From contig CAYXQC010000003.1 of NCBI GenBank assembly GCA_964467385.1, positions 37,798 to 101,797 on the forward strand: 64,000 bases of DNA, given 5' to 3'. This document shows, piece after piece, positions 5,105 to 19,080 of this stretch. This DNA is from an uncultured Candidatus Saccharibacteria bacterium (lineage in GTDB: Bacteria; Patescibacteriota; Minisyncoccia; Phycocordibacterales; CAIZLB01). How positions within the stretch are numbered: the first letter of the stretch is position 1; each line of letters starts with the position of its first letter. The notes under the pieces were generated by a model, which worked only from the letters and a program-made list of their open reading frames with translations, was not told the DNA's origin and did not search any database. A program made the position numbers and the translations under genes.

Positions 5105-5193
5105 GGAGACGTGTCAGAGTGGTCGAATGTGCCTCTTTGCTAAAGAGGTGGGCCTTTAAAAGGGTCCCGAGGGTTCGAATCCCTCCGTCTCCG
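5105..5193 (+). tRNA. tRNA-Ser (anticodon GCT), class II with long variable arm
   Basis: Acceptor stem GGAGACG/CGTCTCC, anticodon stem CCTCT/AGAGG with loop TTGCTAA, long variable arm, T-arm GAGGG-TTCGAAT-CCCTC, discriminator G. Confidence 0.8.
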
Positions 5194-5221
5194 CCTTGAC
5201 AATTTAGTATCGGCGTGACCC
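5174..5221 (+). repeat. attL-like direct repeat (tRNA-Ser 3' end plus downstream block)
   Basis: Identical 21 bp, then a diverged 9-nt patch and a second 18-bp block (TTAGTATCGGCGTGACCC) matching 18415-18432 at 16/18. Confidence 0.6.
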
Positions 5222-5270
5222 TATTACTCGCGGGAGTAGGGCGACCCACGTACCTACTAGATTGCACAAA

Positions 5271-5301
5271 ACACCAAGAGAATTCTCTTGGTGTTTTGTT
5301 G
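5271..5301 (+). terminator. Rho-independent terminator-like hairpin downstream of tRNA-Ser
   Basis: ACACCAAGAGA-ATT-CTCTTGGTGT followed by TTTGTTG. Confidence 0.5.
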
Positions 5302-5317
5302 TTTATATAATTATGAA

Positions 5318-6004
5318 ATGAATTTTGGGAAAGCTATTAAAACCATCACTAAACTTCTCAAGAAAGAAAAGCCTAAAACATTTAGCAGTTCTTGGATTTC
5401 TACCCGTTCTCCTCTCGTATATCACTTCATCAGAGTTAACTTTAGAACCGAAAATAACCACATAGACTGGGACAAGGTCACAGCGGCCCTCGATCCTAAG
5501 TATGCAAAGTGCTGGATGCGTTACAAACGCAAGGTTGCCAAGCCTTACGAGAATCAGATAGAGGTGGATATCATACTTACGAAGTACAAAGACAAGCTCT
5601 ACACCTTTGTCGCTCTTGTTGATGATGGTGATAAGGAAACAAGGAATCAGCTGATCATCGCTCTTGTCCGAATCGCCCAGAAAGGAAATATTCTCGCTCA
5701 ATTAGAACTTACGAAGTGGCTGAAGTATGTCGTCGATGATTGGGTCGATAAATATTACCCGCTATTTAAATGGAAGGGTTACACCGATGACATTGAAGAC
5801 AAGATCCATGGCTGTATTCGCTGTTACAAATACACCGGATCATTTCTTGGCTACTTGTTTAAAACGCTCGAATATTCTGGTCGTGGCATACGACCCCTTC
5901 AAGCATGGTCGCTTGATAAGAATGTCGGTGATGACGGTGCAACGATGATTGATTTCGTTGCTCAGGATAGTGAAACGGGAGAGGTGAAGTTGTTCGGGAG
6001 GTAA
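5318..6004 (+). CDS. Hypothetical protein (island cargo). Start probably at the internal ATG at 5318 rather than 5288, which overlaps the terminator.
   Basis: ORF track; no recognised motifs. Confidence 0.35.
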   Translation: MNFGKAIKTITKLLKKEKPKTFSSSWISTRSPLVYHFIRVNFRTENNHIDWDKVTAALDPKYAKCWMRYKRKVAKPYENQIEVDIILTKYKDKLYTFVALVDDGDKETRNQLIIALVRIAQKGNILAQLELTKWLKYVVDDWVDKYYPLFKWKGYTDDIEDKIHGCIRCYKYTGSFLGYLFKTLEYSGRGIRPLQAWSLDKNVGDDGATMIDFVAQDSETGEVKLFGR

Positions 6005-6023
6005 TTATTGATACTCGCTCTGT

Positions 6024-6866: not shown

Positions 6867-6869
6867 AAA

Positions 6870-7400
6870 TTATTTGGTCGTGTGGACATGGAATCCGCAG
6901 GCTCGGCAGATTCCGTTTATGTTGGCATCTCCGTTTACGTGGAATTCAAAGTTTTCCTTACCGCAAACAGAGCAAACAACTCGACCGCCACTGCGTTTCG
7001 TGGCATCAATCGTATCCAGTATGTCTCTCACGTTCAGAACGTATTTGTTTACCTGTTCACGGTCGTTCAGGTATCCCTGCACCCAGAGATTCGTTGTGAT
7101 TCTTCCTGCAGATGTTTCCTTGTAGTGAATCTTTCCCTCGTTCAGAAGTTTCTCCCAGTACTGCCGTGTCTTGCCATATTCTCTAGCCACATCGCCAGAA
7201 GACATGAGTGAGGCGTTATGGGGAATATATCCCTGATTTTCCATATTTTCTACGCAGGCTCGGATGCCTTCAGCGAGCGCACTCTCTTTTTCCTCCTTGG
7301 AAAATTCGCCAGTCAAATCAACACCGAGGCTCAAAGTGCCACCACTGCTTGTGTTGGCGTGCCAATAGAATTTTCGTTTGTCGTCTTTGGTTGCAGACAT
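6870..7400 (-). CDS. Hypothetical protein with C-terminal CxxC...CxxC zinc-ribbon
   Basis: CSVCGKENFEFHVNGDANINGICRACGFHVHTTK at the C-terminus; co-transcribed orientation with 6024-6866. Confidence 0.4.
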   Translation of the reverse strand: MSATKDDKRKFYWHANTSSGGTLSLGVDLTGEFSKEEKESALAEGIRACVENMENQGYIPHNASLMSSGDVAREYGKTRQYWEKLLNEGKIHYKETSAGRITTNLWVQGYLNDREQVNKYVLNVRDILDTIDATKRSGGRVVCSVCGKENFEFHVNGDANINGICRACGFHVHTTK

Positions 7401-7538
7401 GGCATAAGTATATGCTTGTTGGTTTCTAAATGCAACCAGTTATCTAATACACACGATGTATCAGATAGTATTAGTTTGTATCAGATTAATACGGCTATAA
7501 GGTATGTAGCCGATTACGGCGGATTACAGCCGAAAGGC

Positions 7539-8888
7539 TTATTCCTTCACCAATGTCAGCGTTTTATCCTTGTATATAATTCTCGATCGCAGATTGGCCA
7601 ACAGCTCCCGCTTCTCACTCGTCATGCCTTCCTTGAGGATGTACTTGGCGTAGTTTCGGATATCGGTATCCTTGTCGGTCTTTATCTTCTCCGTTGCTCC
7701 AAGCACAGATCTTTGGAATATATTGTATCGATTTATCTCCTCCTCAAGCTTCTGCCTCATGCCAAGCTCGTTGATGTTCACCTTGTCGAGAATTTTCAGA
7801 AGTTCAGTAATCAGTTCTTCTTCACGAATATATTTGTTCTTGCAGTTTCGGTCCCTAGCTCGTGAGCATGAGTAGTAGATGTAGCGGTTGGCACCTCCGT
7901 CCTTTAGTTGCTTCCATTTCTCCTCAGCCGATATGCCTGATTGGCAGTATCCGCATGTGAAGAGTTTGGTGAAGGCGAACTCCTTCGTTTCTCGCACGAT
8001 CTGGTCGCGCTTCAACTGTGCTTTCGTTTTCTCGAACAGTTCTTGAGTGATCAAGGGCTGATGTTTTCCCTGATACCAGTTGCCGCTTTCCCTTGGTCTT
8101 TCAAATATTCCGTAGTAGAAGGGATTCTCTAGGATTCGATACACACCACTCAGGGTCAGAGGTCTGTTTCCACGTGTATGGAAATTCAGCTCGAACCTCA
8201 TCCAGTTGTATACCTTTCTTCCAGACCATTGCTCATATGCAACTTTCTCGAACATCTTCTTGATGATTGGCGCTCTCTGCGGATCCACAAGCACCTGACC
8301 TTTCTTGTCCATATGCTTTTGATTGAGATATCCAAGCGGTGCCGTTCCGACCCATAGTCCCATCTCGCATCGGGTTCTTAGTCCTCGCTTCACGTTGATG
8401 CCTCGATTGTCATTCTCCAATTTTGCTTGGCTACACAGAATCATCAGCATGAACTTGTCGTTCGGGCTGTTGGTGAATCTTTGGCCGTAGGTGCGGATGT
8501 CCTGCAGATAATTTCCGTCCATAAGATCGATCACTTTTCCGAGATCGCCTGCGTTTCTTGAAATACGGTCTGGTGCCCACGTCAGGATGCCGTTAAACTT
8601 TCCTTGCTTGATCTCATCCACGATCTCATTGAAGACGGGGCGCTGCCCAGTCTCCTTAGCCGAGTGCGATTCTCGCTTCATGGTCACGATCTCCAATCCT
8701 TCTCTTTCTGCCAGTTGGAGCATCTCATTGATCTGGCTATCAATGCTCAAAACCTGCCGTTCCTCCGATTCCGTCGACTTTCTTGCGTAAAGGCAGTATT
8801 TCACCTTTACGGGGCTTGCTACTTTGGCCGCAGTCCCTAATGGCTCTGGTCCTTGTATTTTTGTCATACAACACAAGGAATGACGCAA
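7539..8888 (-). CDS. Large serine recombinase (resolvase/invertase catalytic domain + recombinase domain + zinc-ribbon). True start may be an internal Met.
   Basis: N-terminal YARKSTESEE (the catalytic Ser within the Y-x-R-x-S-T motif), an approximately 450-aa multi-domain length, and C-terminal cysteine pairs CGYC...SCSRARDRNC. Confidence 0.8.
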   Translation of the reverse strand: MRHSLCCMTKIQGPEPLGTAAKVASPVKVKYCLYARKSTESEERQVLSIDSQINEMLQLAEREGLEIVTMKRESHSAKETGQRPVFNEIVDEIKQGKFNGILTWAPDRISRNAGDLGKVIDLMDGNYLQDIRTYGQRFTNSPNDKFMLMILCSQAKLENDNRGINVKRGLRTRCEMGLWVGTAPLGYLNQKHMDKKGQVLVDPQRAPIIKKMFEKVAYEQWSGRKVYNWMRFELNFHTRGNRPLTLSGVYRILENPFYYGIFERPRESGNWYQGKHQPLITQELFEKTKAQLKRDQIVRETKEFAFTKLFTCGYCQSGISAEEKWKQLKDGGANRYIYYSCSRARDRNCKNKYIREEELITELLKILDKVNINELGMRQKLEEEINRYNIFQRSVLGATEKIKTDKDTDIRNYAKYILKEGMTSEKRELLANLRSRIIYKDKTLTLVKE

Positions 8889-8959
8889 CTCGCCCCAAGA
8901 GTCCAGAGCGTCCCGAGTACCTCGAAGTTGGTAACTTTTGCCTGTGGAAAACCCAATAG

Positions 8960-9225
8960 GTGGTTAAGGAAGTTAACCAAAATCGGTAAATTTCGTTAAC
9001 CAGAACTGGTTAACTTTGTTAACACACAAAAGAAAGAGAAATATAGAGAAACTTAGTATTAGGTACAACCTGTGGAAAAACTAGTCTAGTAGGTAGACTA
9101 GTCTAAAATTCAGACTACTTTTGGTCTATTTAGTAGACCGCAAGTAGTCTACGAAGTAGACACACAAAATCTAGGAAACAAAGGGAAACCTAGTATTAGG
9201 GATCGGGTGTGGACAAAGGGTCAAA
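8960..9225. promoter_or_regulatory. Palindrome/repeat cluster upstream of the recombinase gene. Candidate operator or recombination site.
   Basis: - Four GTTAAC-containing palindromes, including the 20-bp GTTAACCAGAACTGGTTAAC at 8995-9014.
- A 23-bp palindrome CTAGTCTAGTAGGTAGACTAGTC around 9081-9105.
- Further GTAGAC/GTCTAC half-sites to 9172.
- About 37-bp imperfect direct repeats (ACYTAGTATTAGG...TGTGGA.AAA) at 9049-9087 and 9187-9223 bracketing them. Confidence 0.4.
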
Positions 9226-9531
9226 AGCCACGACCTCTTTCCTTAATTTCTCAAAATCTCTGAAAACCCTGTTGTATATCCTTATGACTTTTCCTTTGCG
9301 CTTCTTGGTATCGCCATTCTCAAGAAAATCGACGAGGTCATCGTCGATGAAGGAAGCGAGAGAAATGTATGAGGCGACCAATAGCCTAATCCGCTCCCTG
9401 ATCGCCATCTTCAGATGCCTCTTTGACTCAGGCAACTTTGAGATACGGTTAAAAGGAGTAGAGCCTGTTGGCTCATGGTATTTGAAATGCTTTGAGGCTT
9501 CTATGATTGCTTCGATATCATCGTCTTTCAC
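9196..9531 (-). CDS. Hypothetical small protein (island)
   Basis: ORF track only; acidic/basic mixed, no motif recognised. Confidence 0.3.
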   Translation of the reverse strand: MKDDDIEAIIEASKHFKYHEPTGSTPFNRISKLPESKRHLKMAIRERIRLLVASYISLASFIDDDLVDFLENGDTKKRKGKVIRIYNRVFRDFEKLRKEVVAFDPLSTPDP

Positions 9532-9634
9532 CCCCTAACTGATGACGCTGTTCGCAAAGCCTGTCTAGACCCCTCAAAAGTCTCGAGGTTGGTAACCGAC
9601 TACACAAATTCCGATATGTAAGTTATGGTACTAA

Positions 9635-10633
9635 ATGCCTCTAAAAATGCTTCACTTAAGGTCGTTTTTATGCTTTAATATAGCCATTATGGAATTAGTT
9701 CGACTATTCAAAAATCTTACTAAAAACGATGCTGCCATTGCAGGTGGCAAAGGAGCCTCTTTAGGTGAGATGTCCCAAGCAGGAATCCCGGTCCCTCCGG
9801 GATTTGTTGTATTGTCGGAATCCTTCGAGCAATTTCTTCGAGAAACTGATCTTATTCAGGAAATTGATGCAATTCTCGATAACTTAAGTCACAAGGAGAT
9901 TCATCTAGTGGAAGCAGCATCAGAAAAAATCCGCGCACTTATTCTTTCCAAAGAGATGCCGAAAGATATTGCAACTGAAATAAGTAAATCTTCCAAAGAA
10001 CTTGGTTCAGAATTTGTAGCCGTACGATCGTCGGCCACTGCAGAGGATGGCCAAGATCACTCATGGGCAGGTCAACTCGAGTCTTATTTGAACGTAAAAG
10101 AAAATGATGTACTTAATAAAGTTAAGCACTGTTGGGCTTCGCTCTTTACCCCACGTGCAATCTTTTATCGTTTTGAAAAAGAACTTCACACAACAAAGAT
10201 TTCTGTGGCGGTTGTGGTGCAAAAAATGGTTGATTCAGAAATTTCTGGAATTGCATTCTCGGTTCATCCTGTAACTGAAGACAAGAACCAACTTATTATT
10301 GAAGCAGGATATGGATTGGGAGAAGCAATAGTGTCGGGATCGATTACCCCCGATAGTTATGTGGTTGAAAAAGAACCTCGGAAAATTCTCGATATCAATA
10401 TAGCAACACAAACCGAGGCACTCTATAAAAATACGGCGGGAGGAAATACATGGAAAAACATCCATGAACCAAAGGCAAGCTCTCAGGTATTAAAGGAGGT
10501 TCAAATTCTTGAGCTTGCTGATATAATTTTAAATATCGAGAAACATTACGGATTCCCCTGTGACATCGAGTGGGCGTTTGAAAGCGGAAAGTTTTATATT
10601 GTGCAAAGCAGACCCATTACTACATTAACTTAA
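9635..10633 (+). CDS. PEP-synthase / pyruvate-phosphate-dikinase N-terminal ATP-binding (PPDK_N) domain protein. Forms the N-terminal part of a rifampin-phosphotransferase-like enzyme.
   Basis: AIAGGKGASLGEMSQAGIPVPPGFVV and VAVRSSATAEDG motifs are typical of the PPDK_N nucleotide-binding domain. The ORF ends at an in-frame TAA three codons before the next ORF. Confidence 0.7.
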   Translation: MPLKMLHLRSFLCFNIAIMELVRLFKNLTKNDAAIAGGKGASLGEMSQAGIPVPPGFVVLSESFEQFLRETDLIQEIDAILDNLSHKEIHLVEAASEKIRALILSKEMPKDIATEISKSSKELGSEFVAVRSSATAEDGQDHSWAGQLESYLNVKENDVLNKVKHCWASLFTPRAIFYRFEKELHTTKISVAVVVQKMVDSEISGIAFSVHPVTEDKNQLIIEAGYGLGEAIVSGSITPDSYVVEKEPRKILDINIATQTEALYKNTAGGNTWKNIHEPKASSQVLKEVQILELADIILNIEKHYGFPCDIEWAFESGKFYIVQSRPITTLT

Positions 10634-10642
10634 ATCAAATTT

Positions 10643-12181
10643 ATGAATACAAACATCGAACAATTATTACAAAAATATACATTAACTCCCGATTTACTCA
10701 CTGATCCATTGATGAGTCTTGATATGGCTAAACTTGGGGACGACATCACTTCTTTTAAAGAAGAAGGTCTTTCCCAAGGATTTATTCGTCGTCGCATCGT
10801 GCTTTTTATGGATGGCTATCGATATTCGCTTCGTGCAGCAGAAAAGAGATGGGGTATTGATTTTGGATTTTATGAAACTGGAAAAGAACCAGTGAAGAAA
10901 GTATATTTTTCAGGAAAATTTAACGATAATGCAGCCGTGGTTTGGTTACAGAAGATGAACGAAGATAAAGACTTTGGAAATAATCTCGTTGAAGAACTCA
11001 AGACAATAATTGAAATGGAGAAATACTTGGCCGCTTCTGTCTCACAAACAGAACTGTCTAAGGAACAAATTAAAAAACACTTGGAGAATCATCTTTCGTG
11101 GTGGATTCAATTTTTTGAATTTGGATTTCTGTGGTTTTGTGCAGAAAATATTCAACAAGACACAAACGCAAAAATAGAAAAGATCTGGAAAGATACACCA
11201 GAATCGCTTAAGGAATTTCTTGAGGGTGTTTACAGACCAATGGACTTACCTGTATCAAGTGTAGAACAGCGAGATATTCTTGATATCAGCCAATTACAAG
11301 GAGAGGAACTTGAAAAAGCGCTCGACGCCCATTGGAAGAAGTACAAGCACCTATCTCTCCATAATATTGATGATGAGCCTTTTGATAAGGACTACTATGT
11401 AAGTCGAATTAAATCTCTACAAAAAGAAGGAGAATATGCAAAACAAAAAGACTTATTAACCCATGCTGATGCAGAAATTGGTGAAGCGACAAGCCTTCTC
11501 AAGGGTGCGGATATTCCAGAGGAACTAAAAAATAGAATCGAGTTTGTTCGCTGGTTCATGTTTCTTCGAACTGAATCGGTCGACAATATGATGCTAGTGA
11601 ATTCCTCATACAGACATGTATTCGATTCTCTATCAAAGTTATTTGATTTACCGATAGAGGCAGTACTCAATATGACATACAAGGAAATATTTGAGAGTCT
11701 TGAGGCTGGTAAACTTACTCTTTCTAAAGAAGTTATACTGGATAGATTAGAAAATGGTTATGCTTACTTTATTGGATATCGAACTGAAGCATTGCTTACT
11801 GGAGATGATAGACAAAAACTTATTGATATCCTACATCCTGCAACAAACGAAGAAATTATTAAGGAAATAAAAGGACAGATTGCATACAAAGGTAAGATTC
11901 AAGCGATAGCACGAGTCATTCTTGACCGAAAAAATGCTTCCGAGCTACAAGAAGGTGAAATTCTTGTGACCGCCATGACATCTCCAGACTTCGTGCCAGC
12001 CATGAAGATTTCAGCGGGAATCATTACCAATGAAGGAGGAGTACTGTGTCATGCCGCTATCATGTCTCGCGAACTACGAAAGCCTTGTGTTATAGGTACT
12101 AAGACGGCTACCGATATAATAAAGACTGGGGATTTGGTTGAATTAGATGGTGATACTGGAATAATTAAAATTCTAAGCTAG
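10643..12181 (+). CDS. PEP-utilising-enzyme mobile (swivel His) domain protein. C-terminal part of the same RPH-like phosphotransferase.
   Basis: C-terminal GGVLCHAAIMSRELRKPCVIGT is the PEP-utilizers phosphohistidine domain signature, at the extreme C-terminus as in rifampin phosphotransferases. Same reading frame as 9635-10633. Confidence 0.7.
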   Translation: MNTNIEQLLQKYTLTPDLLTDPLMSLDMAKLGDDITSFKEEGLSQGFIRRRIVLFMDGYRYSLRAAEKRWGIDFGFYETGKEPVKKVYFSGKFNDNAAVVWLQKMNEDKDFGNNLVEELKTIIEMEKYLAASVSQTELSKEQIKKHLENHLSWWIQFFEFGFLWFCAENIQQDTNAKIEKIWKDTPESLKEFLEGVYRPMDLPVSSVEQRDILDISQLQGEELEKALDAHWKKYKHLSLHNIDDEPFDKDYYVSRIKSLQKEGEYAKQKDLLTHADAEIGEATSLLKGADIPEELKNRIEFVRWFMFLRTESVDNMMLVNSSYRHVFDSLSKLFDLPIEAVLNMTYKEIFESLEAGKLTLSKEVILDRLENGYAYFIGYRTEALLTGDDRQKLIDILHPATNEEIIKEIKGQIAYKGKIQAIARVILDRKNASELQEGEILVTAMTSPDFVPAMKISAGIITNEGGVLCHAAIMSRELRKPCVIGTKTATDIIKTGDLVELDGDTGIIKILS

Positions 12182-12183
12182 AT

Positions 12184-13026
12184 ATGAAAGAGTCTTTTCC
12201 AAACAATTCCGACGCTATAATCACCAGACATTCTATTCGAGGGGAAAACTCTGAATATGAAGGGCTGTCACCAGAAGGTATTGAGAAAGCAAAAGAAAGG
12301 GCAAAGGATTTCGTGGAAATTATTGAAAAATCTGAACCAGGTACGGTTATATTTTTTGGCGGTGGTTCAACAGAAGCTCGAACAACCTCCACTTTGGAAG
12401 TTTATGTGGATGAAACAAAAAGCTTGTTAAAAGAGAAAGAGGGTGTCTTGTTTTTCGATCAGGAATCAATATCAGAAAAAGCACAGCGTGGTCACCTGTC
12501 CGCAGCAGAAGAGCTTAAAAAAGAAGCAGATGATAATCCTGAGGCAAAAGTAGTTGTAGATCTACCGCTTGTTATTAAGGATTTTCTTAAAGACGAATGG
12601 TGGTATGAGGAAGATGGAACGGTTAAAGAGCCGTGGCAATCTTTATTAGATAAACATGGGAAAGATTACTCATCCATAGTTCGAGACTGGTTTGAGACTC
12701 AGGGAATGTATGATGGTGAGCAAAAGGTTCCTAAACCTATTGAAGTTGCTGAAAGCTATCTAAATGGAATTAAACGATTACAAGGTTTTGTTAGAAAGTT
12801 TTCAGGAGATAGGAACGTTAAAGTTGTAGTTGTCGGGCATAGCATTCAGATGGATGCTTTACTTACTTATTTGGCAAATGATGGGGTTGTAGATTTAGAA
12901 GGATTTGAAAATATCGGAGACAAAGTTGTAGATACAACTGAAATGTCTGTTATTGAACCTGATGAAGATGGAGGCATTCATCTTTCTTATAGGGGTAAAG
13001 AGTTTATTTTTGGAGAAAATCAATAA
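12184..13026 (+). CDS. Histidine phosphatase superfamily (phosphoglycerate-mutase-like) protein
   Basis: N-terminal ITRHSIRGEN (RHG-type catalytic motif) and VVVGHS later; start 2 nt after the preceding stop. Confidence 0.55.
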   Translation: MKESFPNNSDAIITRHSIRGENSEYEGLSPEGIEKAKERAKDFVEIIEKSEPGTVIFFGGGSTEARTTSTLEVYVDETKSLLKEKEGVLFFDQESISEKAQRGHLSAAEELKKEADDNPEAKVVVDLPLVIKDFLKDEWWYEEDGTVKEPWQSLLDKHGKDYSSIVRDWFETQGMYDGEQKVPKPIEVAESYLNGIKRLQGFVRKFSGDRNVKVVVVGHSIQMDALLTYLANDGVVDLEGFENIGDKVVDTTEMSVIEPDEDGGIHLSYRGKEFIFGENQ

Positions 13027-13031
13027 ATAAT

Positions 13032-15128
13032 CTAAATCCCAATATATGGAAATTGGGGTAAGTCATCTTCCTCAAAATCTTCCTGCTGTGCTGGTCTCTG
13101 AATAATTCTCTTGTCTTTTGCAATAGTGAGTACAAGCGCATCGGGAATAGACGAGTCGATACCTTCTTCAGTAAGTTCATCTCGATCAATCATTTTTCTC
13201 TTGCCATTCGTATCGGCATAAACCATGTACAGAAGATCATCGAAGACATGTCTCCCTACAAGCTTTCCAATCCTTAACCATCCTGTCAGTTTTGAATATG
13301 CCCTCGCCCAATTGTCGGCAAACAGGTTGCCATCAAACTGTGGTTGCTCATTCATAGTGATTCCGTACCGTTGTCGATTCCCATATTTGTTGATGTTGAA
13401 ATGACCAACTGCGAGATGTCTCAATAGATTGCACAATTCCTGCCCTCGATCTGCTTTGTCGATAAAAATGTTCTCGTCCGATATCGGCACGTCATGTATC
13501 TTTGCGAGTTCGATAACTTTTAAGACGACTGTCGTCACATCCTGCATCGGCTCATGATACAGAACCTCAGCCGCATTCTCAGCTCTAAGCACGATAGTTG
13601 AGTAAGTCCTGTTTTTGTCTGCCAACACCACTCCCAGTCTTTTGTCTCCGAAATACGAAACCCTTTCCTGATAGCTGTCATTAAGAAGTCTTTCATCAAA
13701 GAGTGCATGATACCCCTTTGGTATATTCGATTCCTGATCCATCATGCTCCATACGAGGATGCAGAATGCATCTGAAAGGTCATCGTGCTTTTCCGTGCCA
13801 AAGCCCACGAGCTGTTCGATCAGCTTCTCAGCGCCATATCGAGGGAAGAGCACTGTTCCTGATTGAATGTGGTGTGAGATGAGTGACAGTCTAGCTCGCT
13901 TATCCGATCCTTGAGTCTTGTATTCCTTTGCGGGAAAGTTTTCCGATTTCAGATGGTCGATGATCGACTTCTGGTATCCCGCGTTCTCGATCCATACGTG
14001 TGCGTTTCCTAAAGTCTTTGACAGCGACTTAATCTTCTCAATCGTCTTCGGGAAATCCATTCGCTCGTTCACAGGATTCGGCAACACATAAATCTTCAAT
14101 GCCTTCTTTCTGCCGTATATCTTTCCTGAAACCATCGCTGTATAGTCCGCATTGTCCTTCTCGCTGATTGCGGGATCAATGCCGGTAGCGGTGAACCGAC
14201 ACGCATCAGCAGGCAGTGAATCGTAATATCGTATCCATTCAGGACGAATTACTTGATCATCATCTGCAATAATCTGGAGCATGTATTCTCTCTGCCATGC
14301 TTGAAGGCTCGGTACTGATTTTCTCAAAGTTTCTACTTCAGCATCCGTTCGGTACTTGTCCTTCCATAAAGGCTGATTATTCTCATCAAGGAATGGATAC
14401 GCCCTTGCAACGCCATCCATTCGACCTTCGAGAATGGCTTTCTTCAATCTCATGATGATCGAATCGTTATGAAGCTTCGTGCCGATCACAATTAATCTCG
14501 TGTCCTTGTCTCCAAGAGGAATGATGTCTCCCATAAGCCAGTTGAACATCTTGTCTCGACTCTCTTGGGTTTTGACGATATCCAAATCCTCAAGGTCGTC
14601 AGCAATTATCAAATCTGGCCTATGCGCCCCGTGCTTGATACCTCGAATCGAGTTATCGATTGAAGCTACTGTCACTCTCGCTCCGTATTTCGGCAACACG
14701 ATTGATACCGCACGCCACTCATCATTCGGCTCCTCGAATGGTCCGAGGTCTAATCTAAGTAATCGGTTGTGCTCAAGCTCCAGTTTGATGTTTGCAAGAT
14801 ACTGCCGTGCTTGACTTTCGGTCTTGGCGATAATTAAAACAAATTTTCTCTGCTGCATTCCGAGGATAGACCAGATCGCATAGGAAGTCCCCATGATCGT
14901 GGTCTTTCCTGATCCTCGGAATGCTTCGATAACCATGGTCTTATGAGACGCTTCGGTGAGTTCAAACAATTCCTTATGAAATTGCGCCGTCTTGTATTTA
15001 ACATAGTGGGAAAAGTAGATGTGGAAGAACCAGTGATGACAGGCTCTTGTAGTCGCACGCCTCACTCGTTGATTCTTAACTATCTCATCAATCTTTTCTG
15101 CCGATACTTCGGTGTCGTGGTTATGCAT
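13032..15128 (-). CDS. Phage terminase large subunit-like protein (ATPase + nuclease)
   Basis: Walker A EAFRGSGKTT after an N-terminal extension of about 60 aa; Walker B-like LIIADDLED; approximately 700-aa length; immediately preceded by a small HTH protein with overlapping stop/start. Confidence 0.6.
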   Translation of the reverse strand: MHNHDTEVSAEKIDEIVKNQRVRRATTRACHHWFFHIYFSHYVKYKTAQFHKELFELTEASHKTMVIEAFRGSGKTTIMGTSYAIWSILGMQQRKFVLIIAKTESQARQYLANIKLELEHNRLLRLDLGPFEEPNDEWRAVSIVLPKYGARVTVASIDNSIRGIKHGAHRPDLIIADDLEDLDIVKTQESRDKMFNWLMGDIIPLGDKDTRLIVIGTKLHNDSIIMRLKKAILEGRMDGVARAYPFLDENNQPLWKDKYRTDAEVETLRKSVPSLQAWQREYMLQIIADDDQVIRPEWIRYYDSLPADACRFTATGIDPAISEKDNADYTAMVSGKIYGRKKALKIYVLPNPVNERMDFPKTIEKIKSLSKTLGNAHVWIENAGYQKSIIDHLKSENFPAKEYKTQGSDKRARLSLISHHIQSGTVLFPRYGAEKLIEQLVGFGTEKHDDLSDAFCILVWSMMDQESNIPKGYHALFDERLLNDSYQERVSYFGDKRLGVVLADKNRTYSTIVLRAENAAEVLYHEPMQDVTTVVLKVIELAKIHDVPISDENIFIDKADRGQELCNLLRHLAVGHFNINKYGNRQRYGITMNEQPQFDGNLFADNWARAYSKLTGWLRIGKLVGRHVFDDLLYMVYADTNGKRKMIDRDELTEEGIDSSIPDALVLTIAKDKRIIQRPAQQEDFEEDDLPQFPYIGI

Positions 15129-15558
15129 GGTCGATTGTAGTTAATCCGAGAGCCTCACGCACCATCTTTTCTTCTTGAGGAGTGAGAGCTTCTTCCTCTG
15201 CGGTCTTGGTGGTAAGTTCGACCTTGTTTCTATACTTAGGATGATGCTGTCTGAGCCACAATTGGATTGCAGGAAAATTCTTTTCCTTGATGAGTGTAAT
15301 GAGCTGACTTTCGGAAAGATCATTGATCATTTCCTCGCCGTCCTGCATGGCCTCGTCAGTCGCTTTCTTGAATTTCGCATCATCACGTCTCCATCGGTAG
15401 TAGGTGCTACGACCAATATTGCTTCTCTCACATGCAATCTGCACGATCGGTATCTTTCGGAGCTGTTCCAAGACGACTTTCTGTTCAACTTTGTTTCTTT
15501 TTAGGGTTGATTCTCTTTTCATAATTTCATTGCTTTTAAGTTTGTTAATTTTTCCCAT
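15121..15558 (-). CDS. Small HTH DNA-binding protein. Probable terminase small subunit.
   Basis: 145 aa; helix-turn-helix IACERSNIGRSTYYRWRR; 8-nt overlap with the terminase large subunit start. Confidence 0.4.
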   Translation of the reverse strand: MGKINKLKSNEIMKRESTLKRNKVEQKVVLEQLRKIPIVQIACERSNIGRSTYYRWRRDDAKFKKATDEAMQDGEEMINDLSESQLITLIKEKNFPAIQLWLRQHHPKYRNKVELTTKTAEEEALTPQEEKMVREALGLTTIDHA

Positions 15559-16349
15559 CTAATAATTGCGGTCTGTACGTACTCGGGATCAAGCTCTATG
15601 GCGATACATGCTCGCTTGGTCTGCTCGCACGCCAATAGACATGTTCCAGAGCCAAGAAAGGCATCGTAAACGACATTGCCAATGCGAGTGCTATTGAGGA
15701 TGAGATGTCGAATAAGTGGCACAGGCTTAGTCGTAGGGTGGAATGGACTCTTGTTCGGCTTCGGATGAACGATGACACTCTTGTCTTTTGATTTTAAGAA
15801 TTCATGCGTTCCATACCATCCGTATGCGATGAGTTCATGCATCGGTGCATAATCCATTCTTCCAACCACTGCTTGAGTTTTCACCCACACAATCAATTGA
15901 GCGAATTTACAGCCGATTGATTTCATTCCGTCACGCAAGGCGAATATCATCTTGTCGGAGTTGAAGATGTACAGAGCATTCTTCCGTTCAAGATGTGGAG
16001 TTACCGCACTAAGCCAGTCTTCAGTGAACTTCTTGTATTCCTCGTCAGACTGAAGGTGATCATTCTCAATCTTCTTGCCTTTGAGCAATGCTTTAAAGTT
16101 CTGCTTGCTCTCCGCAACCGCAACTCCGTAGGGCGGATCGGAAATGATTGCCTTAATTTTTCTTTTACTAACCACCCTTGAGACGAACTCCTTGTCTCTC
16201 GAATCACCGCAAGCAATCGTGTGTTCGCCAAGTTGAAAGATGTCTCCCGCCTTAATTGAGTTTTGTGACTTTTTCATTTGGAGAGAGTTGTCTAAAGCGG
16301 TTGATAATGAGTTGGCAGAATATCGGTTCCATTTCGCAGAGATACGCAA
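15519..16349 (-). CDS. DNA N6-adenine/N4-cytosine methyltransferase (N6_N4_Mtase family). Real start probably the internal Met near 16277.
   Basis: IISDPPYG catalytic motif and C-terminal FLGSGT SAM-binding motif. Confidence 0.75.
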   Translation of the reverse strand: MRISAKWNRYSANSLSTALDNSLQMKKSQNSIKAGDIFQLGEHTIACGDSRDKEFVSRVVSKRKIKAIISDPPYGVAVAESKQNFKALLKGKKIENDHLQSDEEYKKFTEDWLSAVTPHLERKNALYIFNSDKMIFALRDGMKSIGCKFAQLIVWVKTQAVVGRMDYAPMHELIAYGWYGTHEFLKSKDKSVIVHPKPNKSPFHPTTKPVPLIRHLILNSTRIGNVVYDAFLGSGTCLLACEQTKRACIAIELDPEYVQTAIIRWEKLTNLKAMKL

Positions 16350-17538
16350 TGCGTTTCAACTGTTCGCACGCTGACAGGATGCTTCCTGATCCGCCAGTAA
16401 TATCGAGGACGATATCACCAGGGCGACTACACCTACGCAATGCTTTCTCATGCAAGGTAGGAGGCTTCTGTGTCGGATGTGCATATTCCTGTGACGGCAG
16501 TCGCTTCACGAGCCAGATATTGAGCATGTCTAGAATATCCTCGACTAATCTGTTGCCAGTCGTGGTTTCTTTGTTCAATACTTCATTGAGATTTTTAATC
16601 TTGTCAGACAAGTAAGGTTTTCCTCTCGTGCCGTATACGCAATATTCGGTGACCTTGTTGAATGCCACCTGCGGTGTCGGGGAAGCATTGTCTTTAACCC
16701 ACAAGCAGAGTCGCTTTGAATCGATACCAAGCTCCTTGTAGAGTTCTTGGAATAGCCAAACGTATCGCTCATCGCACCAGAAGAAAACGTGAGCGTCTGG
16801 CTTGGTCACGCTCAATGCGTTTTGGATAAGTGTCTTTGCGAATGTTTTATACTCGTCATCCGTTTTGCTGTCGTCAGTTGTTCCACCATATTTAGCTTTA
16901 TTGCCGACACCTTTGTCATACGAGAGACCGATGTTGTATGGAGGATCGGTATTGATCATGTCGGCAAGATTTTCATTCATGAGAAACTTGATCATGTTTT
17001 GATCTGTAGAATTGCCGCAGAGAAGTCTGTGGCGACCGAGAGCAAAGTAGTCGCCGAATTTTATATCGGTTTCCTTTATTTTCTCCAACTCTTTTTCCTC
17101 ATCGAAGTTGTCGTCACTCACTTCGAGATTGTCATCAAAGATATTAGTGAGATCGGTTGAATCAAAGCCTGCCATGAGCAGGGTGTCGATGTCGAAGTCG
17201 CTCGCCAGTATCTCCCAGTCCCAAGAGCCGCCTGAACGATTGCTTGTTAATAAATATTGTTTGAACTCAGAAGGGGTGAGCTTGCGATTCGGTGTTCTCA
17301 CCTCGATTTCTTCTTCACCTCGACCTAGCAGTTGCAGCGCTTTGATGCGCTGATGGCCTGCGACGATCTTTCCGTCAGTGTTGATCGCAGGAAGCTCTGC
17401 AAGATTGAACTTCTTCAAGCTTTCCTTTAAGTCTTCCATCTGCTTGTCCGTGATTTTCCTCGGATTCTTCTCGTAGGGCAGAAGATCGTTTACCCGGCGC
17501 TTTTCGGTACGCCATACCAGTGGTGTTAATTTGGACAT
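16252..17538 (-). CDS. ParB-like nuclease domain fused to DNA methyltransferase (phage-type ParB-MTase)
   Basis: N-terminal ParB/Srx-like region (KITDKQMEDLKESLKKFNLAELPAINTDGKIVAGHQRIKAL), INTDPPYN catalytic motif, C-terminal DITGGSGS SAM motif. Confidence 0.75.
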   Translation of the reverse strand: MSKLTPLVWRTEKRRVNDLLPYEKNPRKITDKQMEDLKESLKKFNLAELPAINTDGKIVAGHQRIKALQLLGRGEEEIEVRTPNRKLTPSEFKQYLLTSNRSGGSWDWEILASDFDIDTLLMAGFDSTDLTNIFDDNLEVSDDNFDEEKELEKIKETDIKFGDYFALGRHRLLCGNSTDQNMIKFLMNENLADMINTDPPYNIGLSYDKGVGNKAKYGGTTDDSKTDDEYKTFAKTLIQNALSVTKPDAHVFFWCDERYVWLFQELYKELGIDSKRLCLWVKDNASPTPQVAFNKVTEYCVYGTRGKPYLSDKIKNLNEVLNKETTTGNRLVEDILDMLNIWLVKRLPSQEYAHPTQKPPTLHEKALRRCSRPGDIVLDITGGSGSILSACEQLKRIAYLCEMEPIFCQLIINRFRQLSPNEKVTKLN

Positions 17539-17599
17539 ATATATTTACGGTTATTAATAATAGGCACAGTATGCGTTCCACAACTTGATCTAAATGTAG

Positions 17600-17775
17600 G
17601 AATTACTCTTGCTCCTCACTTAATCATGCGTGTGAAAAAGTGATTTTTGTGTTGCATTACTCTTCTGTCCTGAGACAATGGTAAATCCCAAAAAGTGACA
17701 AATCGTGGTGCATTACTTTTGCCATCCATAATGCTACTCGTGAAAAAATGCAAAAAGGTGTGCATTACTTTCTCT
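17600..17775. repeat. Periodic iteron-like repeats upstream of the ParB-MTase/terminase operon
   Basis: Four copies of ..TGCATTACTYTT / ATTACTCTT at 17603, 17656, 17712 and 17764 (spacing 52-56 bp). The three downstream copies at 17630-17664, 17690-17720 and 17739-17772 are preceded by AAAAAGTGA-type blocks. Confidence 0.45.
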
Positions 17776-18172
17776 ACCCAGAATCGTATGCTGGCCAACG
17801 TATCCGATTAGTGGGTATTGAAAATGCTACTGGATAAAAAACGTGTAAAATCGTGCGGAATCAATTTCACTTTCTTATCCTCTAAAAGCGTAGCGGACCC
17901 GAACCCTTCTGTCTGGGGGAATTACCTGGCAGAGAATGAATATGAAAATCAGTCCAGCAATCCTCTGAAAATATGCAAAATCAAAATGGCACACTGCTTT
18001 GGCACAGTGTGCTGTTCCAATACCTCTGAAATACCCTTATGTTGCTTGGCGAAAGATGTCGAAACCATCCTTACGGGGCTTGTTTGAAACACTGCCCCTG
18101 CGTGTGCCAAATTGTGCCAATTTGGGAAAGGGAGACCCCGACCCACGAACCCCAAATTGATCAGTCCAAATA

Positions 18173-18229
18173 TGCTAAAATACCCTTACAAGGTCTCACC
18201 CATGGGGTACTTAACCCACGATGCCCGCA
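18173..18229 (+). repeat. Copy A of a 57-nt duplicated block with an extended -10 promoter-like start
   Basis: TGCTAAAATACCCTTA ... GGTACTTAACCCACGATGCCCGCA; followed by hairpin ACCAGTTTTAACTGGT. Confidence 0.4.
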
Positions 18230-18384
18230 TTGACGATACGAACCAGTTTTAACTGGTGAGTGTCGGCAACTTTCTGATACAGTAGGAAGCGAAGCTTTTG
18301 GGGATTCGAAAAGGTTCTCCCATATTTTCGAGAATGAGCGTAGCGAGTTTGAGAAAATGGGAAACCTGTACTGAAGCTGTAAGC

Positions 18385-18432
18385 TTCGAATCCCTCCGTC
18401 TCCGCATTAAGAACTTGGTATCGGCATGACCC
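18385..18432 (+). repeat. attR-like direct repeat (displaced copy of the tRNA-Ser 3' end, no 5' half)
   Basis: TTCGAATCCCTCCGTCTCCGC identical to 5174-5194; no complementary T-stem or acceptor 5' strand upstream. Confidence 0.6.
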
Positions 18433-18438
18433 GAGTGC

Positions 18439-19080
18439 CTAAGAAACCTTCTTAAATACCAAATCACCCGAGATTCTATCTTCGGTGTTAGGTCGCTTCC
18501 AAAGAAATATATTTTGAGTAAATTCAGTAGGATTTTGAATTTCTGAGGCTGAGTGATTGTAAATATTGATTCCTCGCCCCTTCATCATCTCGATTATTCT
18601 TGGTTCAAATTGCTCTAGTGATACGAAAATACTTTGTCGTGCCACTCTCTCAAATTCCTTCGCTAATTTTTCCCAATCCTCAATAAAGTAAAGGGAACTG
18701 AGTGCGATGATGTGGTCTACAGATTTATCCCTGAAAGTTTCAATGACATCCTCGACAGCCCCGATATGTCCCTCAAAACCTCGCTTTTTTGCCTCCTCAA
18801 TCATTGCGGGCGAAATATCAATTCCTTCGTATGTAAATGAGTCACCTAAATATTTCTTGAGCTTTCCCGTACCACAACCAATATCGAGCAAAGTTCCCTC
18901 GGTTATTCCATATTTTTGATATGTTTCCAGTAGAATTCTTGGAATCTGATATTCAGCTTTTCCTTCAAAGGATTCGTCGTAGACTGATGCGGCCTCGTCA
19001 TAAAAAAGGGTCACATTCCTCCTCTGTGTTTCAAGTTCTGTTTTTTCTGGACTTGGCGGTATTTTTTCCATATCTATCAT
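18439..19080 (-). CDS. Class I SAM-dependent methyltransferase
   Basis: LDIGCGTGKL motif I and DISPAMIEEAKKRGF; 213 aa. Confidence 0.6.
   Translation of the reverse strand: MIDMEKIPPSPEKTELETQRRNVTLFYDEAASVYDESFEGKAEYQIPRILLETYQKYGITEGTLLDIGCGTGKLKKYLGDSFTYEGIDISPAMIEEAKKRGFEGHIGAVEDVIETFRDKSVDHIIALSSLYFIEDWEKLAKEFERVARQSIFVSLEQFEPRIIEMMKGRGINIYNHSASEIQNPTEFTQNIFLWKRPNTEDRISGDLVFKKVS

Follow-up and report, generated by a model that had tools for sequence, protein, structure and literature searches.

The closest described systems are the PICIs/SaPIs and the capsid-forming PICIs (cf-PICIs), integrative islands of ~10-15 kb with their own integrase and att sites. In the case of PICIs and SaPIs, a packaging gene (TerS) redirects encapsidation, the island is a hotspot of defence or resistance cargo, and there is no full virion module. 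Most described satellites have a replication module, and SaPI iterons are element-specific sequences matched to their cognate protein. In known phages, repeated or bent sequences near pac or cos assist terminase assembly, and the pac signal of Mu lies just inside the left genome end. The PLE of Vibrio cholerae and the marine VEIMEs are satellites whose integration relies on a large serine recombinase. VEIMEs, which are small, occur inside phage particles, and some of them have TerS homologues and methyltransferases; TerL has not been reported for PLEs and VEIMEs (PMC6002521, PMC9618062).

The window analysed here (the whole 64-kb stretch, in its own numbering; named beside its relatives, which carry L-numbers, "window" denotes its element) contains an element of ~13 kb (~5195-18228) occupying the 3' end of a tRNA-Ser(GCU) on a Patescibacteria (CPR) chromosome. 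It shares with PICIs and SaPIs the size range, an integrase and att sites of its own, a packaging gene (TerS) that would redirect encapsidation, a hotspot of defence or resistance cargo and the lack of a full virion module. The element has a large serine recombinase, whereas PICIs have a tyrosine integrase, and it carries a complete terminase (TerS and TerL) with no capsid, portal or protease genes, whereas cf-PICIs carry all of these. It further differs from PICIs in having two DNA methyltransferases (MTases), in its host phylum, Patescibacteria, and in that neither a primase-replicase or ori module nor a master repressor was recognised in it. It shows no sequence relationship to PLE or VEIMEs, and its association with particles is putative. 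The architecture is phage-satellite-like, and the element probably parasitises phages. On the gene strand, the left end (P' arm) is followed by a 686-nt non-coding control region, then ParB-MTase, MTase, TerS and TerL, then variable cargo, and finally o9196, the serine recombinase, accessory genes and o5288, up to the right end at the tRNA:

5105..5195, plus strand: tRNA-Ser(GCU), the integration target (ARAGORN and Rfam)
5195..5290: element end (P arm), with a conserved GGGTCACGCCGATACTAAATTGTCAAG half-site, then a hairpin and T-run upstream of o5288 (alignment of three right ends)
5318..6004, plus strand: o5288, 228 aa, partner of the serine recombinase (>600 homologues, no Pfam match)
6024-6866, minus strand: Hypoth_Ymh/HEPN-like defence-type protein (Pfam PF09509 1e-20; PADLOC PD-Lambda-3_B, Aga_HEPN)
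6870-7400, minus strand: small HTH and zinc-ribbon-like protein (HTH and Zn-ribbon read from sequence)
7539..8888, minus strand: large serine recombinase (integrase; Pfam Resolvase, Recombinase, Zn_ribbon_recom; phrog_95 integrase 2e-60)
9196..9531, minus strand: o9196, conserved 111-aa protein upstream of the recombinase (no family match)
9635-10633 and 10643-12181, plus strand: rifampicin-phosphotransferase/PEP-synthase-like enzyme, split into two ORFs (Pfam PPDK_N 2e-99, PEP-utilizers)
12184-13026, plus strand: histidine phosphatase, cargo (Pfam His_Phos_1)
13032..15128, minus strand: TerL, terminase large subunit (phrog_38 1e-77, aa 19-469; NCBIfam termin_lrg_T7, psiM2_ORF9)
15121..15558, minus strand: TerS, terminase small subunit, N-terminal HTH (phrog_4044 3e-10; Pfam HTH_Tnp_1_2; likely start 15522)
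15519..16349, minus strand: second DNA MTase, beta-class, DPPY motif (PF01555 7e-31; phrog_498; likely start 16277)
16252..17538, minus strand: DNA MTase, DPPY motif, with a fused ParB-like domain at its N-terminus (PF01555 N6_N4_Mtase 3e-29; phrog_498 7e-86)
18175..18228, minus strand: left end, P' arm GCATCGTGGGTTAAGTACCCCA... (T-arm-like dyad) and recombination core
18229..18405, plus strand: 173-nt remnant outside the element, in which the last 21 nt of the tRNA-Ser recur exactly

At the recombinase-side junction, the recombination core is the terminal CCGC of the tRNA (5191-5194), and right junctions of the form ...CCGATACTAAnTTGTCAAk/GCGG/tRNA-Ser were found in the window as well as in L003 and L013, each at its own tRNA-Ser isoacceptor. 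The left border lies at a second core, CCGC on the plus strand (18225-18228), 686 nt upstream of ParB-MTase. Identical left junctions, host/GCGG/GCATCGTGGG, were present in L002, L004, L005 and L037, whose left flanks are unrelated, while the remaining lineages have a variant left junction, GCGG/TGTATGTGAGTTAAGTACCCC. Beyond this border, positions 18385-18405 repeat the last 21 nt of the tRNA-Ser (5174-5194), a match for which a pattern search gave 0 expected by chance; the remnant segment is missing from L005. The G+C content of the core genes is 0.43-0.48, against 0.36-0.41 in the flanks. The window copy of the recombinase is complete, and the gene is kept downstream of TerL in relatives. 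Homologues of o5288 always adjoin a Resolvase+Recombinase+Zn_ribbon gene, and in L003 and L013 o5288 lies beside tRNA-Ser; it is a possible directionality factor. The protein o9196 is 82-90% identical in L001, L002, L004, L005, L007 and L009. The cargo (9635..13026), whose split enzyme matches RIF_Ptrans_rph and PEP synthase in NCBIfam, is window-specific, lies on the strand opposite to the operon and is missing in 32/32 related loci.

The four-gene operon is the conserved packaging and methylation core of the element. A sequence-only reading of this DNA had described four minus-strand genes overlapping by 98, 40 and 8 nt as one transcription unit, and the longest ORFs (16252-17538, 15519-16349, 15121-15558 and 13032-15128) confirm these values. 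The gene caller of the source assembly places later starts (second MTase ATG 16277, TerS ATG 15522). The overlaps then become 26, 4 and 8 nt, so that the genes overlap under either set of starts. The same order and overlaps recur in ~26/32 genome loci and in 8 IMG/VR contigs, in agreement with a tightly coupled unit. The ParB-like part of the first MTase matches phrog_620 (9e-24, aa 11-159), with no HTH or parS-binding part detected in it, and homologues of the fusion protein occur in 538 phage records at ~31% identity. A restriction-endonuclease domain was detected in none of the element's genes, and both MTases are orphan there, as had been proposed. TerL has Walker A, Walker B and nuclease Asp residues that are invariant across 13 relatives, and bears a ~230-aa C-terminal extension to which no function was assigned. 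Its closest cultured relatives are Mu-like transposable phages, a remote likeness of ~27% identity; unlike these phages, the element has no transposase and integrates site-specifically.

Related elements number ~40 in Patescibacteria assemblies and IMG/VR contigs (32 genome loci, at least 8 IMG/VR contigs), all built on the same four genes and the recombinase with variable defence or antibiotic-modification cargo. The cargo differs from one element to the next (APH, GNAT and SAM-MTases; nSTAND3-Mrr; an Eco57I-like enzyme; type I RM; RT plus AAA/VWA; HEPN; an RPH-like enzyme); its exchange always takes place at a single site, which lies between TerL and the recombinase. Genomes whose neighbouring PilM proteins are only ~50% identical have element proteins of 84-95% identity, a contrast that points to recent mobility of the family.

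A ParB-like-MTase fusion directly upstream of terS and terL is ordinary in real phages, where it heads the late/packaging region (e.g. Streptococcus phage Javan178, Clostridium phage CWou-2020b). The whole locus might be a decaying prophage remnant, with a terminase module that outlived the structural genes and with no current mobile-element role for genes or repeats: the operon is how phage late regions usually begin, several elements have remnants and gene-less mini copies beside them, and L003 has lost TerL and recombinase. We consider this very unlikely. In tailed phages, portal and head genes come after the terminase genes, whereas here cargo and the recombinase do; searches with Pfam and PHROGs detected no portal, capsid or tail gene in the element and no virion protein in any relative. 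The locus is thus not a phage late operon inside a prophage. The same compact architecture with intact ORFs recurs in ~40 loci, down to 47% protein identity, and the invariant TerL catalytic residues, the single site of cargo exchange and the excess of element over host-neighbour identity likewise argue against decay.

The control region, upstream of ParB-MTase, contains the following features:

17551..17561, minus strand: ATTATTAATAA box shared by most related elements, 13-23 nt upstream of the ATG (alignments)
17559..17830, minus strand: repeat array, cores AARAGTAAT(G/T)C, each followed by a T-tract
17824..17884, minus strand: 61-nt hairpin-forming insert (GGATAAGAAAGTGAAATTG...CGATTTTACACGTTTTTTATCC; stem in fold)
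17885..17962, minus strand: conserved type-1 block ...TGGACTGATTT..ATATTCATTCTCTGCCAGGTAATTCCCCCAGACAGAAGG (alignments)
17963..18143, minus strand: conserved left-end module, 300-500 bp upstream (covariance model)

Four ATTACT blocks 52-56 bp apart had been reported in this region. They start on the plus strand at 17602 (not 17603), 17656, 17712 and 17764, the fourth copy being ATTACTTTC, and their gene-strand core is AAAGTAAT. Written as AARAGTAATKC, the cores lie at 17600-10, 17654-64, 17710-20 and 17762-72; the last has 1 mismatch, and successive cores are 54, 56 and 52 bp apart. The motif described as preceding three of the copies, AAAAAGTGA, is exact in two of them (17635 and 17690), and the third reads AAAAAATGC. 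The units share a ~34-nt core region of 74-88% identity plus the T-tract, and a more degenerate unit is found at 17775-17830. Allowing one mismatch at most, the core motif has 15 matches in 64 kb against 8.4 expected, and four copies on one strand within 173 nt have a Poisson probability of ~7e-10 per scanning interval, or ~5e-7 corrected for all such intervals. The clustering is thus far beyond chance, and the repeats are genuine, imperfect direct repeats. The array goes uncalled by Tandem Repeats Finder, since outside the core its units are <70% alike.

Conservation of the repeats among homologous elements, on which the earlier proposal had been made to depend, was found in part: they are kept in the 8 closest elements, with invariant cores and diverging spacers, and are missing from all others, including sister lineages whose genes are 84-93% identical. 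Between near-identical elements the copy number varies from 3 to 5 through indels of exactly one unit; since, in addition, whole lineages have no array, any function that it has is dispensable or replaceable. The repeats could even be functionless relics of local duplication and slippage, conserved only through the kinship of the eight elements, as the clean unit-sized indels, the restriction to one lineage and the missing Tandem Repeats Finder call would allow. This explanation seems to us unlikely, given that in L001 and L008 the spacers have diverged to ~50% column identity while the 9-nt cores, and how far each lies from the ATG, are kept in 4/4 units (core positions -233, -181, -125 and -72 in the window, L008 and L001).

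The promoters of the family also speak against such relics. A promoter had been proposed in 17539-17800; it is not visible there, because the gene strand of 17539-18440 contains no sigma-70-like promoter. Type-1 elements (window, L004) have no sigma-70-like promoter on this strand and no other recognisable one. In type-2 and type-3 elements, the module is directly followed by TTGACA-16-TACAAT (11/12) or TTTACG-17-TATGAT. Where the repeats would lie, sister lineages have a sigma-70-type promoter, in some cases together with an additional ORF and a hairpin that a T-run follows. On the plus strand, the ATTATTAATAA box doubles as the -10 of a promoter-like TGGACA-18-AATAAT. The 61-nt insert is present in the window and L002 and cleanly missing from L003 and L004, and the type-1 block holds one more GTAATTCC core (17925-17918).

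The repeats are best read, from these comparisons, as a lineage-specific cis-regulatory array and not as iterons, parS or pac; the array showed neither RNA covariation nor a conserved ORF. We give an even chance to the overall reading of the locus as a capsid-less, phage-satellite-like integrative element in which the repeats act, in one lineage, as an operon-control array. When a helper phage supplied capsids, the operon would be switched on, and the two orphan N6-adenine-type MTases would modify the DNA of the element. TerS would recognise this DNA, most plausibly at the 7-bp direct and inverted boxes of the module (17963-18143), and TerL would cut it and pump it into the helper capsids, after which the recombinase would insert it into the tRNA-Ser of a new host. 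The excised element would be expected to have the circular junction ...TTGTCAAG/GCGG/GCATCGTGGG.... Each repeat, with its T-tract, would serve as one binding site of a tandem array for a trans-acting factor controlling operon transcription. No element gene specific to the repeat-bearing lineage was found, and this putative factor would likeliest be an activator or polymerase of the host or helper phage. Counting against the overall reading, no helper phage was identified: in IMG/VR, 15-mer matches were at chance level and no array was found, and none of the ten largest other ORFs of the window is a virion gene. The element also has no replication module, unlike most described satellites. A late activator is the only option of the sequence-only reading for the repeats that survives in this tentative form.

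That reading had also offered a replication origin or binding sites for the ParB-like domain. Direct repeats in a non-coding region adjacent to a ParB-like protein do recall iterons or centromere-like sites, and short repeats of this kind lie beside packaging genes in SaPI ori iterons, lambda cosB R sites and P2/P4 late-promoter activator sites. Unlike such arrays, however, the AAAGTAAT units lie at intervals of 52-56 bp, vary in number and are confined to one lineage; they co-vary with no element protein, and no cognate initiator is encoded. An origin is unlikely because there is no Rep or primase gene, nor a helicase gene or other replication module, in the element; the spacing and the 9-12-bp cores are unlike iterons of 17-22 bp, and no DnaA box is conserved, the only 7/9 match sitting in the dispensable hairpin. 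Binding by the ParB-like domain is unlikely because this N-terminal domain is 88-96% identical with and without the repeats and has no detected HTH; the cores, moreover, are not palindromic like parS. Taken together, iterons or centromere-like sites are a most improbable explanation.

The repeats might be part of the packaging signal, as an accessory bent-DNA array that promotes the assembly of TerS and TerL on a pac site. They are located in the one large non-coding stretch of an element with TerS and TerL genes of its own, each unit has a T-tract, with a ~54-bp periodicity, the array adjoins a box module that tracks TerS, and the Mu-like relatives of TerL use a pac at the left genome end. 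Against this, sister lineages with equally conserved TerS and TerL have no array, and no 10-11-bp A/T phasing was found within it. Binding of TerS is further made unlikely by L001 and L008, in which the cores persist alongside a TerS of only 55-60% identity and differing boxes. The repeats thus track neither the ParB domain nor TerS, and we judge a part in packaging to be decidedly unlikely for them.

The left-end module is a better candidate for pac (TerS recognition), or may be a structured RNA. It lies 80-260 bp inside the left end of the element, a placement like that of Mu pac. In order, it comprises an anchor, GGTCGGGGTCT, two direct TTGGCACA boxes 11 bp apart (18118-18098), a AAGGGTATTT box and then two inverted TGTGCCA boxes (18007-17985). 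The module is non-coding, has no Rfam match and was detected with the covariance model in 18 elements, with 94.9% pairing and double changes in 8 pairs, which 0/500 shuffles matched. G.U and A.C counts were 16 and 6 cells, which are not independent, and the covariation is equally compatible with an RNA or a single-stranded-DNA structure. As in SaPI iterons, the 7-bp boxes are element-specific: their sequence differs between elements, and direct and inverted copies are the same within one element. TerS similarity follows box class best of all genes (78.8% within versus 61.5% between classes, permutation p<0.0002), a correlation confounded by linkage, as all genes show some box-class signal (p<0.01), and with L013 and L015 as exceptions. 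The variants of the TerS HTH recognition helix match the box classes, for example in L021, whose TerS is otherwise of the other clade.

The final 21 nt of the tRNA-Ser(GCU) gene (5105-5195) recur without mismatch at 18385-18405, where chance would produce no copy. The following features of an integrative element lie in the interval.

7539-8888: large serine recombinase, complete, between the tRNA-Ser gene and its 21-nt copy
13032-15128, minus strand: TerL (phrog_38, 1e-77 over aa 19-469; weaker T7-type and psiM2-type NCBIfam matches)
15121-15558, minus strand: TerS, with an N-terminal HTH (phrog_4044; Pfam HTH_Tnp_1_2)
15519-16349, minus strand: second MTase, a beta-class N6_N4 DNA methyltransferase
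16252-17538, minus strand: ParB-MTase, a beta-class N6_N4 DNA methyltransferase with a ParB-like N-terminal domain

The four minus-strand ORFs that a sequence-only reading had assigned to one operon were all found, and the overlaps of 98, 40 and 8 nt reported between them were reproduced for the longest ORFs; with the starts of the source assembly's gene caller the overlaps are 26, 4 and 8 nt. The operon as such is ordinary, because tailed phages commonly have a ParB-MTase gene immediately before terS/terL. The ParB-like part of the first protein is an N-terminal domain only (aa 11-159). Walker A, Walker B and the nuclease aspartates of TerL are invariant among 13 diverse members, and TerS and TerL are predicted to be packaging genes with intact catalytic motifs, as in phage satellites that hijack the packaging of a helper. 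Both MTases match PF01555 and carry DPPY motifs, and the element's only nuclease domain is that of TerL. The claim of two methyltransferases without a restriction endonuclease was thus borne out, and both appear to be orphan phage MTases, with no cognate endonuclease encoded within the element. TerL, TerS and the small ORFs matched no defence system in PADLOC. A C-terminal extension of TerL of about 230 aa (13032-13724, minus strand) matched no family; it is kept in the close clade and missing in the distant clade, where TerL is about 490 aa long. Two TerL-like genes lie in tandem downstream of TerS in two related IMG/VR contigs (L045, 3158-6189; L054, 3833-6725).

The ends of the element were defined by aligning junctions on the gene strand. 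Left junctions from several genomes read host/GCGG/GCATCGTGGGTTAAGTACCCCA... or, in sister lineages, /GCGG/TGTATGTGAGTTAAGTACCCC..., and the host sequence beside them is unrelated between genomes. All three available right junctions read ...CCGATACTAAnTTGTCAAk/GCGG/, and continue into a tRNA-Ser gene in reverse complement, with a different anticodon in each of the three. The two sets of junctions therefore place the crossover at the CCGC ending the tRNA, and such a very short shared core would fit a serine recombinase. On this alignment, the element in the window is placed at about 5195-18228. An integrase and defined att sites, as expected of satellites, are present in the form of the serine recombinase, GCGG-core junctions at the tRNA-Ser 3' end and arms conserved across genomes. 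Excision is predicted to give the circular junction ...CCGATACTAAATTGTCAAG/GCGG/GCATCGTGGGTTAAGTACCCC...; exact-protein look-ups for an empty integration site returned the source contig alone.

The element carries 13 genes in 13 kb, none of them structural or lytic, and the G+C of its core genes exceeds that of the flanks. Other genes of the interval encode a HEPN/Ymh-type protein, a small HTH/zinc-ribbon-like protein, two conserved small proteins and, as cargo, a rifampicin-phosphotransferase/PEP-synthase-like enzyme in two ORFs and a histidine phosphatase. Searches against Pfam, PHROGs and NCBIfam revealed no portal, capsid, protease, tail, lysis or replication families in the element of the window, where several small ORFs stayed unannotated, and the same searches detected no primase/helicase or other replication module of its own. 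An intact prophage was rejected, since the att-bounded element has no virion, lysis or replication module. The cargo of the window (9635-13026, plus strand) was found in none of the other related loci when 32 loci were compared. Its enzyme ORFs are 9 nt apart, one with a PPDK_N domain and the other with a PEP-utilizers domain, and the histidine phosphatase follows them; at 0.37-0.39, their G+C is below that of the element core.

A genome scan, with one genome per species and the taxonomy labels of MAGs taken as deposited, identified 32 related loci, all from Patescibacteria/CPR-type assemblies. The same four genes occur in the same order in about 26 of them; downstream of the operon, the relatives carry a variable stretch and then homologues of o9196, an element protein encoded near the recombinase (9196-9531, minus strand), and of the serine recombinase. 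In IMG/VR, a profile scan added more contigs of the same capsid-less layout and an exact-word scan gave no close TerL relative; a metagenome scan contributed one further relative (L037). What the variable stretch encodes depends on the locus: L004 has APH, GNAT and SAM-dependent methyltransferases, L016 an nSTAND3-Mrr protein, L023 an Eco57I-like enzyme, L050 a reverse transcriptase with AAA/VWA proteins, and L047 and L048 each have a complete type I restriction-modification system. Portal, capsid, protease and tail families were absent from the cargo of these six loci and of L013. Between genomes in which the neighbouring PilM is only about 50% identical, the element proteins share 84-95% identity, which points to recent horizontal spread. 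The rival explanation, that the locus is a decaying prophage, has to be weighed against this set of relatives, in which the operon recurs and no virion gene was found in any member examined. We consider it highly probable that the locus is a satellite-like integrative element with a self-contained packaging module as its conserved core.

The non-coding left-end region measures 686 nt in the window (18224 down to 17539) and consists of a box module and a stretch before the first gene; no conserved ORF was found in the 900 nt upstream of the ParB-MTase. A covariance model showed that the box module (17963-18143), located 80-260 bp inside the left end, is common to 18 elements. It is made of an invariant anchor, GGTCGGGGTCT, two direct 7-bp boxes 11 bp apart and two inverted copies about 100 nt further on. 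The box sequence is TGGCACA in the window, CCGAACA in L001, GGGACA in L007, L020, L008 and L015, GAGACA in L010-12 and TGTGACA in L030, and all copies of one element change together. Long-range pairing and a local hairpin of the module are 94.9% paired, with eight positions showing double changes, which no shuffle equals. Such a pattern would be expected of an RNA or single strand that folds, but also of sites bound by a single sequence-specific protein. The protein-site reading is favoured because the two direct copies are identical in five independent box classes; counts of G.U versus A.C do not decide the strand. Rfam gave no match at E<=10 in 17400-18600 except a spurious lncRNA. Coding potential of 17885-18228 was rejected, substitutions being even over the codon phases (36/34/37), and candidate ORFs there were ruled out by stops in relatives.

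The similarity of TerS follows the box class best of all genes (78.8% within versus 61.5% between classes, p<0.0002); the sample is 18 elements of shared ancestry, and linkage gives every gene some of this signal. The variable positions in the HTH recognition helix of TerS also sort by box class: GRSTYYRWRR occurs with GGCACA, GKSTYYRWRQ with GGGACA, SRPTYYRWRN with GAGACA and GRTTYYDWRN with CGAACA. The TerS of L021 otherwise belongs to the other clade, yet has RWRR together with GGCACA boxes; L013 and L015 are exceptions to the rule. Because box class follows both TerS similarity and the recognition helix, we regard the box module as a better candidate for the terminase recognition site (pac) than the AAAGTAAT array described below. 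The pac location of Mu-like phages resembles the place of the module near the left end, and the closest cultured relatives of the element TerL are those of Mu-like phages, at about 27% identity.

The stretch between the box module and the first gene exists in three interchangeable versions. Type 1 (the window, L001-L005, L008 and L037) carries the AAAGTAAT array. Type 2 (L006, L013 and L021) has a near-consensus promoter (TTGACA-16-TACAAT in L013), a leader of about 430 nt and a hairpin with a T-run immediately upstream of the gene. Type 3 (L007, L009-L012, L020 and L024, with L015 similar) has a promoter (TTTACG-17-TATGAT in L012), an extra ORF of 278-297 aa, an inverted repeat and a hairpin with a T-run. 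Decay of this extra ORF as the origin of the non-coding region of the window was rejected, tblastn showing no similarity. A promoter for the operon had been placed in 17539-17800; there is no sigma-70-like promoter on the gene strand there, nor on the gene strand of type 1 as represented by the window and L004. On the opposite strand, a promoter-like TGGACA-18-AATAAT (10/12) is present at 17532-17561 (plus strand) and also in L004 (10007-9978). It overlaps the ParB-MTase start codon, its -10 being the conserved ATTATTAA box, and would drive transcription through the repeats to the element end and, in the circular form, towards the gene o5288.

The repeat blocks reported upstream of the operon are real; the first had been placed one base off, and the fourth copy departs from the consensus proposed for them. 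On the gene strand, the core AARAGTAAT(G/T)C occurs at 17600-10, 17654-64, 17710-20 and 17762-72, with spacings of 54, 56 and 52, and the corrected chance probability of four matches on one strand within 173 nt is about 5e-7. The units share a core region of about 34 nt and one T-tract each. Tandem Repeats Finder did not call the array, its units being too divergent, and no helical A/T phasing was detected in it, the period of about 54 nt being the sole periodicity. Conservation in homologues held in part: the repeats are kept in type 1 and absent from types 2 and 3 and from 12 more distant elements, none of which has a repeat array upstream of its ParB-MTase. In type 1 the cores are invariant and the spacers divergent. 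L008 and L001 keep all four cores at -233, -181, -125 and -72 from the ATG, with a between-unit column identity of only about 50%. One 56-nt unit is missing in L002, L003, L004 and L037, and 118 nt are missing in L005, L037 and L001, so that copy number varies by clean unit-sized indels. The rival explanation of the repeats as neutral duplication relics is favoured by the unit-sized indels and opposed by the invariance of the cores between divergent spacers. No ORF of the array survives the indels. The array folds as a single sequence with z = -4.0; RNA structure was rejected, since 0 compensatory pairs were counted in the alignment and its covariation term was unfavourable.

The sequence-only reading had offered the repeats as sites for the ParB-like domain or for a late activator, or as a packaging or replication origin. 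Across the three control-region types the ParB-like domain keeps 88-96% identity and is hence not tied to the repeats, being the same in elements with and without them. A ParB-parS-type site is further disfavoured by cores that are not palindromic and by the lack of a detected HTH in the domain. Iterons are several 17-22-bp direct repeats beside an AT-rich unwinding region and a cognate initiator gene; here cores of 9-12 bp are spaced by 52-56 bp, with neither an initiator gene nor a conserved DnaA box, which argues against an origin. As for packaging, L001 and L008 have the same cores, yet their TerS proteins are only 55-60% identical and their box classes differ. TerS is thus not tied to the repeats, and this lack of co-variation with the cognate TerS speaks against the array as pac and also against the rival view that it has an accessory role in packaging. 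We tentatively regard the AAAGTAAT array as a regulatory site array for a trans-acting factor, a reading to which we give somewhat less than an even chance; no element gene specific to type 1 was found.

Other non-coding features were noted in the same region. The window and L002 carry a near-perfect hairpin insert of about 61-64 nt (17824-17884, minus strand), which is precisely missing in L003 and L004 and holds the region's only DnaA-box-like 9-mer (7/9). The block TGGACTGATTT..ATATTCATTCTCTGCCAGGTAATTCCCCCAGACAGAAGG (17900-17962, minus strand), which contains one further GTAATTCC core, is kept throughout type 1, even in the divergent L001 and L008. TAAGGGTATTTyAG occurs in two copies (18172-18186 and 18023-18037, minus strand), 149 nt apart and flanking the first half of the box module. 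Its AAGG is nearly invariant among 15 aligned elements, and the motif matches the AAAGTAAT core at 6/9 positions.

In the mechanism that we propose, the operon would be switched on and the MTases would then modify the DNA; TerS would bind the box module and TerL would package the DNA into capsids supplied by a helper phage, after which the recombinase would integrate it at a tRNA-Ser of the new host. In type 1, the AAAGTAAT array would take the place of an ordinary promoter, with tandem sites that a trans-acting activator or non-host polymerase would recognise. IMG/VR scans with the module word and a core 15-mer, which gave no or chance-level single matches, identified no helper phage. The full reading is that of an undescribed phage-satellite family of Patescibacteria with TerS and TerL, two MTases, a serine-recombinase module and no capsid genes, which would move cargo genes for defence and antibiotic modification among very divergent hosts. 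Its members would be packaged from a left-end box module specific to TerS and, in one lineage, would have their operon tied to a helper-phage factor through the AAAGTAAT array replacing the normal promoter. Taken as a whole, we think it rather unlikely that this reading holds in every part.

Satellites with TerS are the PICIs, and those with TerS, TerL and capsid genes the cf-PICIs. The element shares with PICI-like satellites site-specific integration, the lack of a complete virion gene set and packaging genes, but differs in having no replication module of its own; unlike cf-PICIs, it has no detected major capsid, portal, protease or head-tail connector genes. We have not assigned it to either group, because the defining replication or capsid modules were sought and not found. 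Serine-recombinase satellites are known from PLE and some marine VEIMEs (PMC6002521, PMC9618062). A full-text literature search returned no account of a Patescibacteria element that combines a complete terminase with two MTases and a serine recombinase and has no capsid or replication module; the combination in these bacteria appears new, the operon, serine-recombinase satellites and TerS satellites being already known. Patescibacteria (CPR) are episymbionts with tiny genomes, whose mobile elements and gene flow are poorly known, and to our knowledge few plasmids or conjugative systems have been recognised in them. If the proposal is correct, a widespread, recently mobile family of elements of about 9-16 kb would be a concrete vehicle of horizontal transfer in this group; the family has a cargo of restriction-modification, HEPN, STAND, reverse-transcriptase and antibiotic-modifying genes and appears built for packaging by its own terminase. 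Satellite architectures would also extend to a terminase without capsid, mobilised by a serine recombinase. Since the 7-bp boxes co-vary with the TerS recognition helix, the family would offer a natural experiment on terminase specificity, and another on control logic, with a repeat array, a promoter and leader, or a promoter and extra ORF before the same operon. If the elements are inert remnants, the finding is an ordinary one.

Copies without genes accompany several elements. The 21-nt tRNA copy of the window lies in an extra segment of about 173 nt (18229-18405) missing in L005. This segment has the last 21 nt of tRNA-Ser at its start and a P-arm-like ...GTCAAT/GCGG at its end; lying outside the element, it looks like a remnant. 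The sequence TTCGAATCCC upstream of the operon is a duplicated tRNA-Ser 3' fragment and no gene, and no known RNA was recognised in the upstream region by tRNA/tmRNA or Rfam scans. Gene-less mini copies of about 500 nt, comprising a left end and a right end, stand in tandem with the full element in L010 (8236-8734) and L037 (about 500 nt upstream of the left end), and a further remnant or mini copy does so in L013 (9112-9260). Either mobilisation in trans of non-autonomous derivatives or decay of tandem insertions might account for them. In L007, a further large serine recombinase (7233-8801), divergent and 35% identical, lies immediately beyond the left end of the element and suggests that another element was inserted adjacent to it.

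The o5288 family (5318-6004, plus strand, in the window; loci L202-L206) comprises more than 600 unannotated CPR proteins, always adjoining a large serine recombinase, and in two of the related loci the homologue abuts the tRNA-Ser gene. The idea of o5288 as a sigma-like regulator specific to the repeats was rejected, as it matches no family and accompanies serine recombinases generally, in many unrelated CPR elements. The protein is a candidate recombination directionality factor or regulator. One o5288-recombinase pair lies beside a diversity-generating retroelement (RVT_1 plus bAvd).
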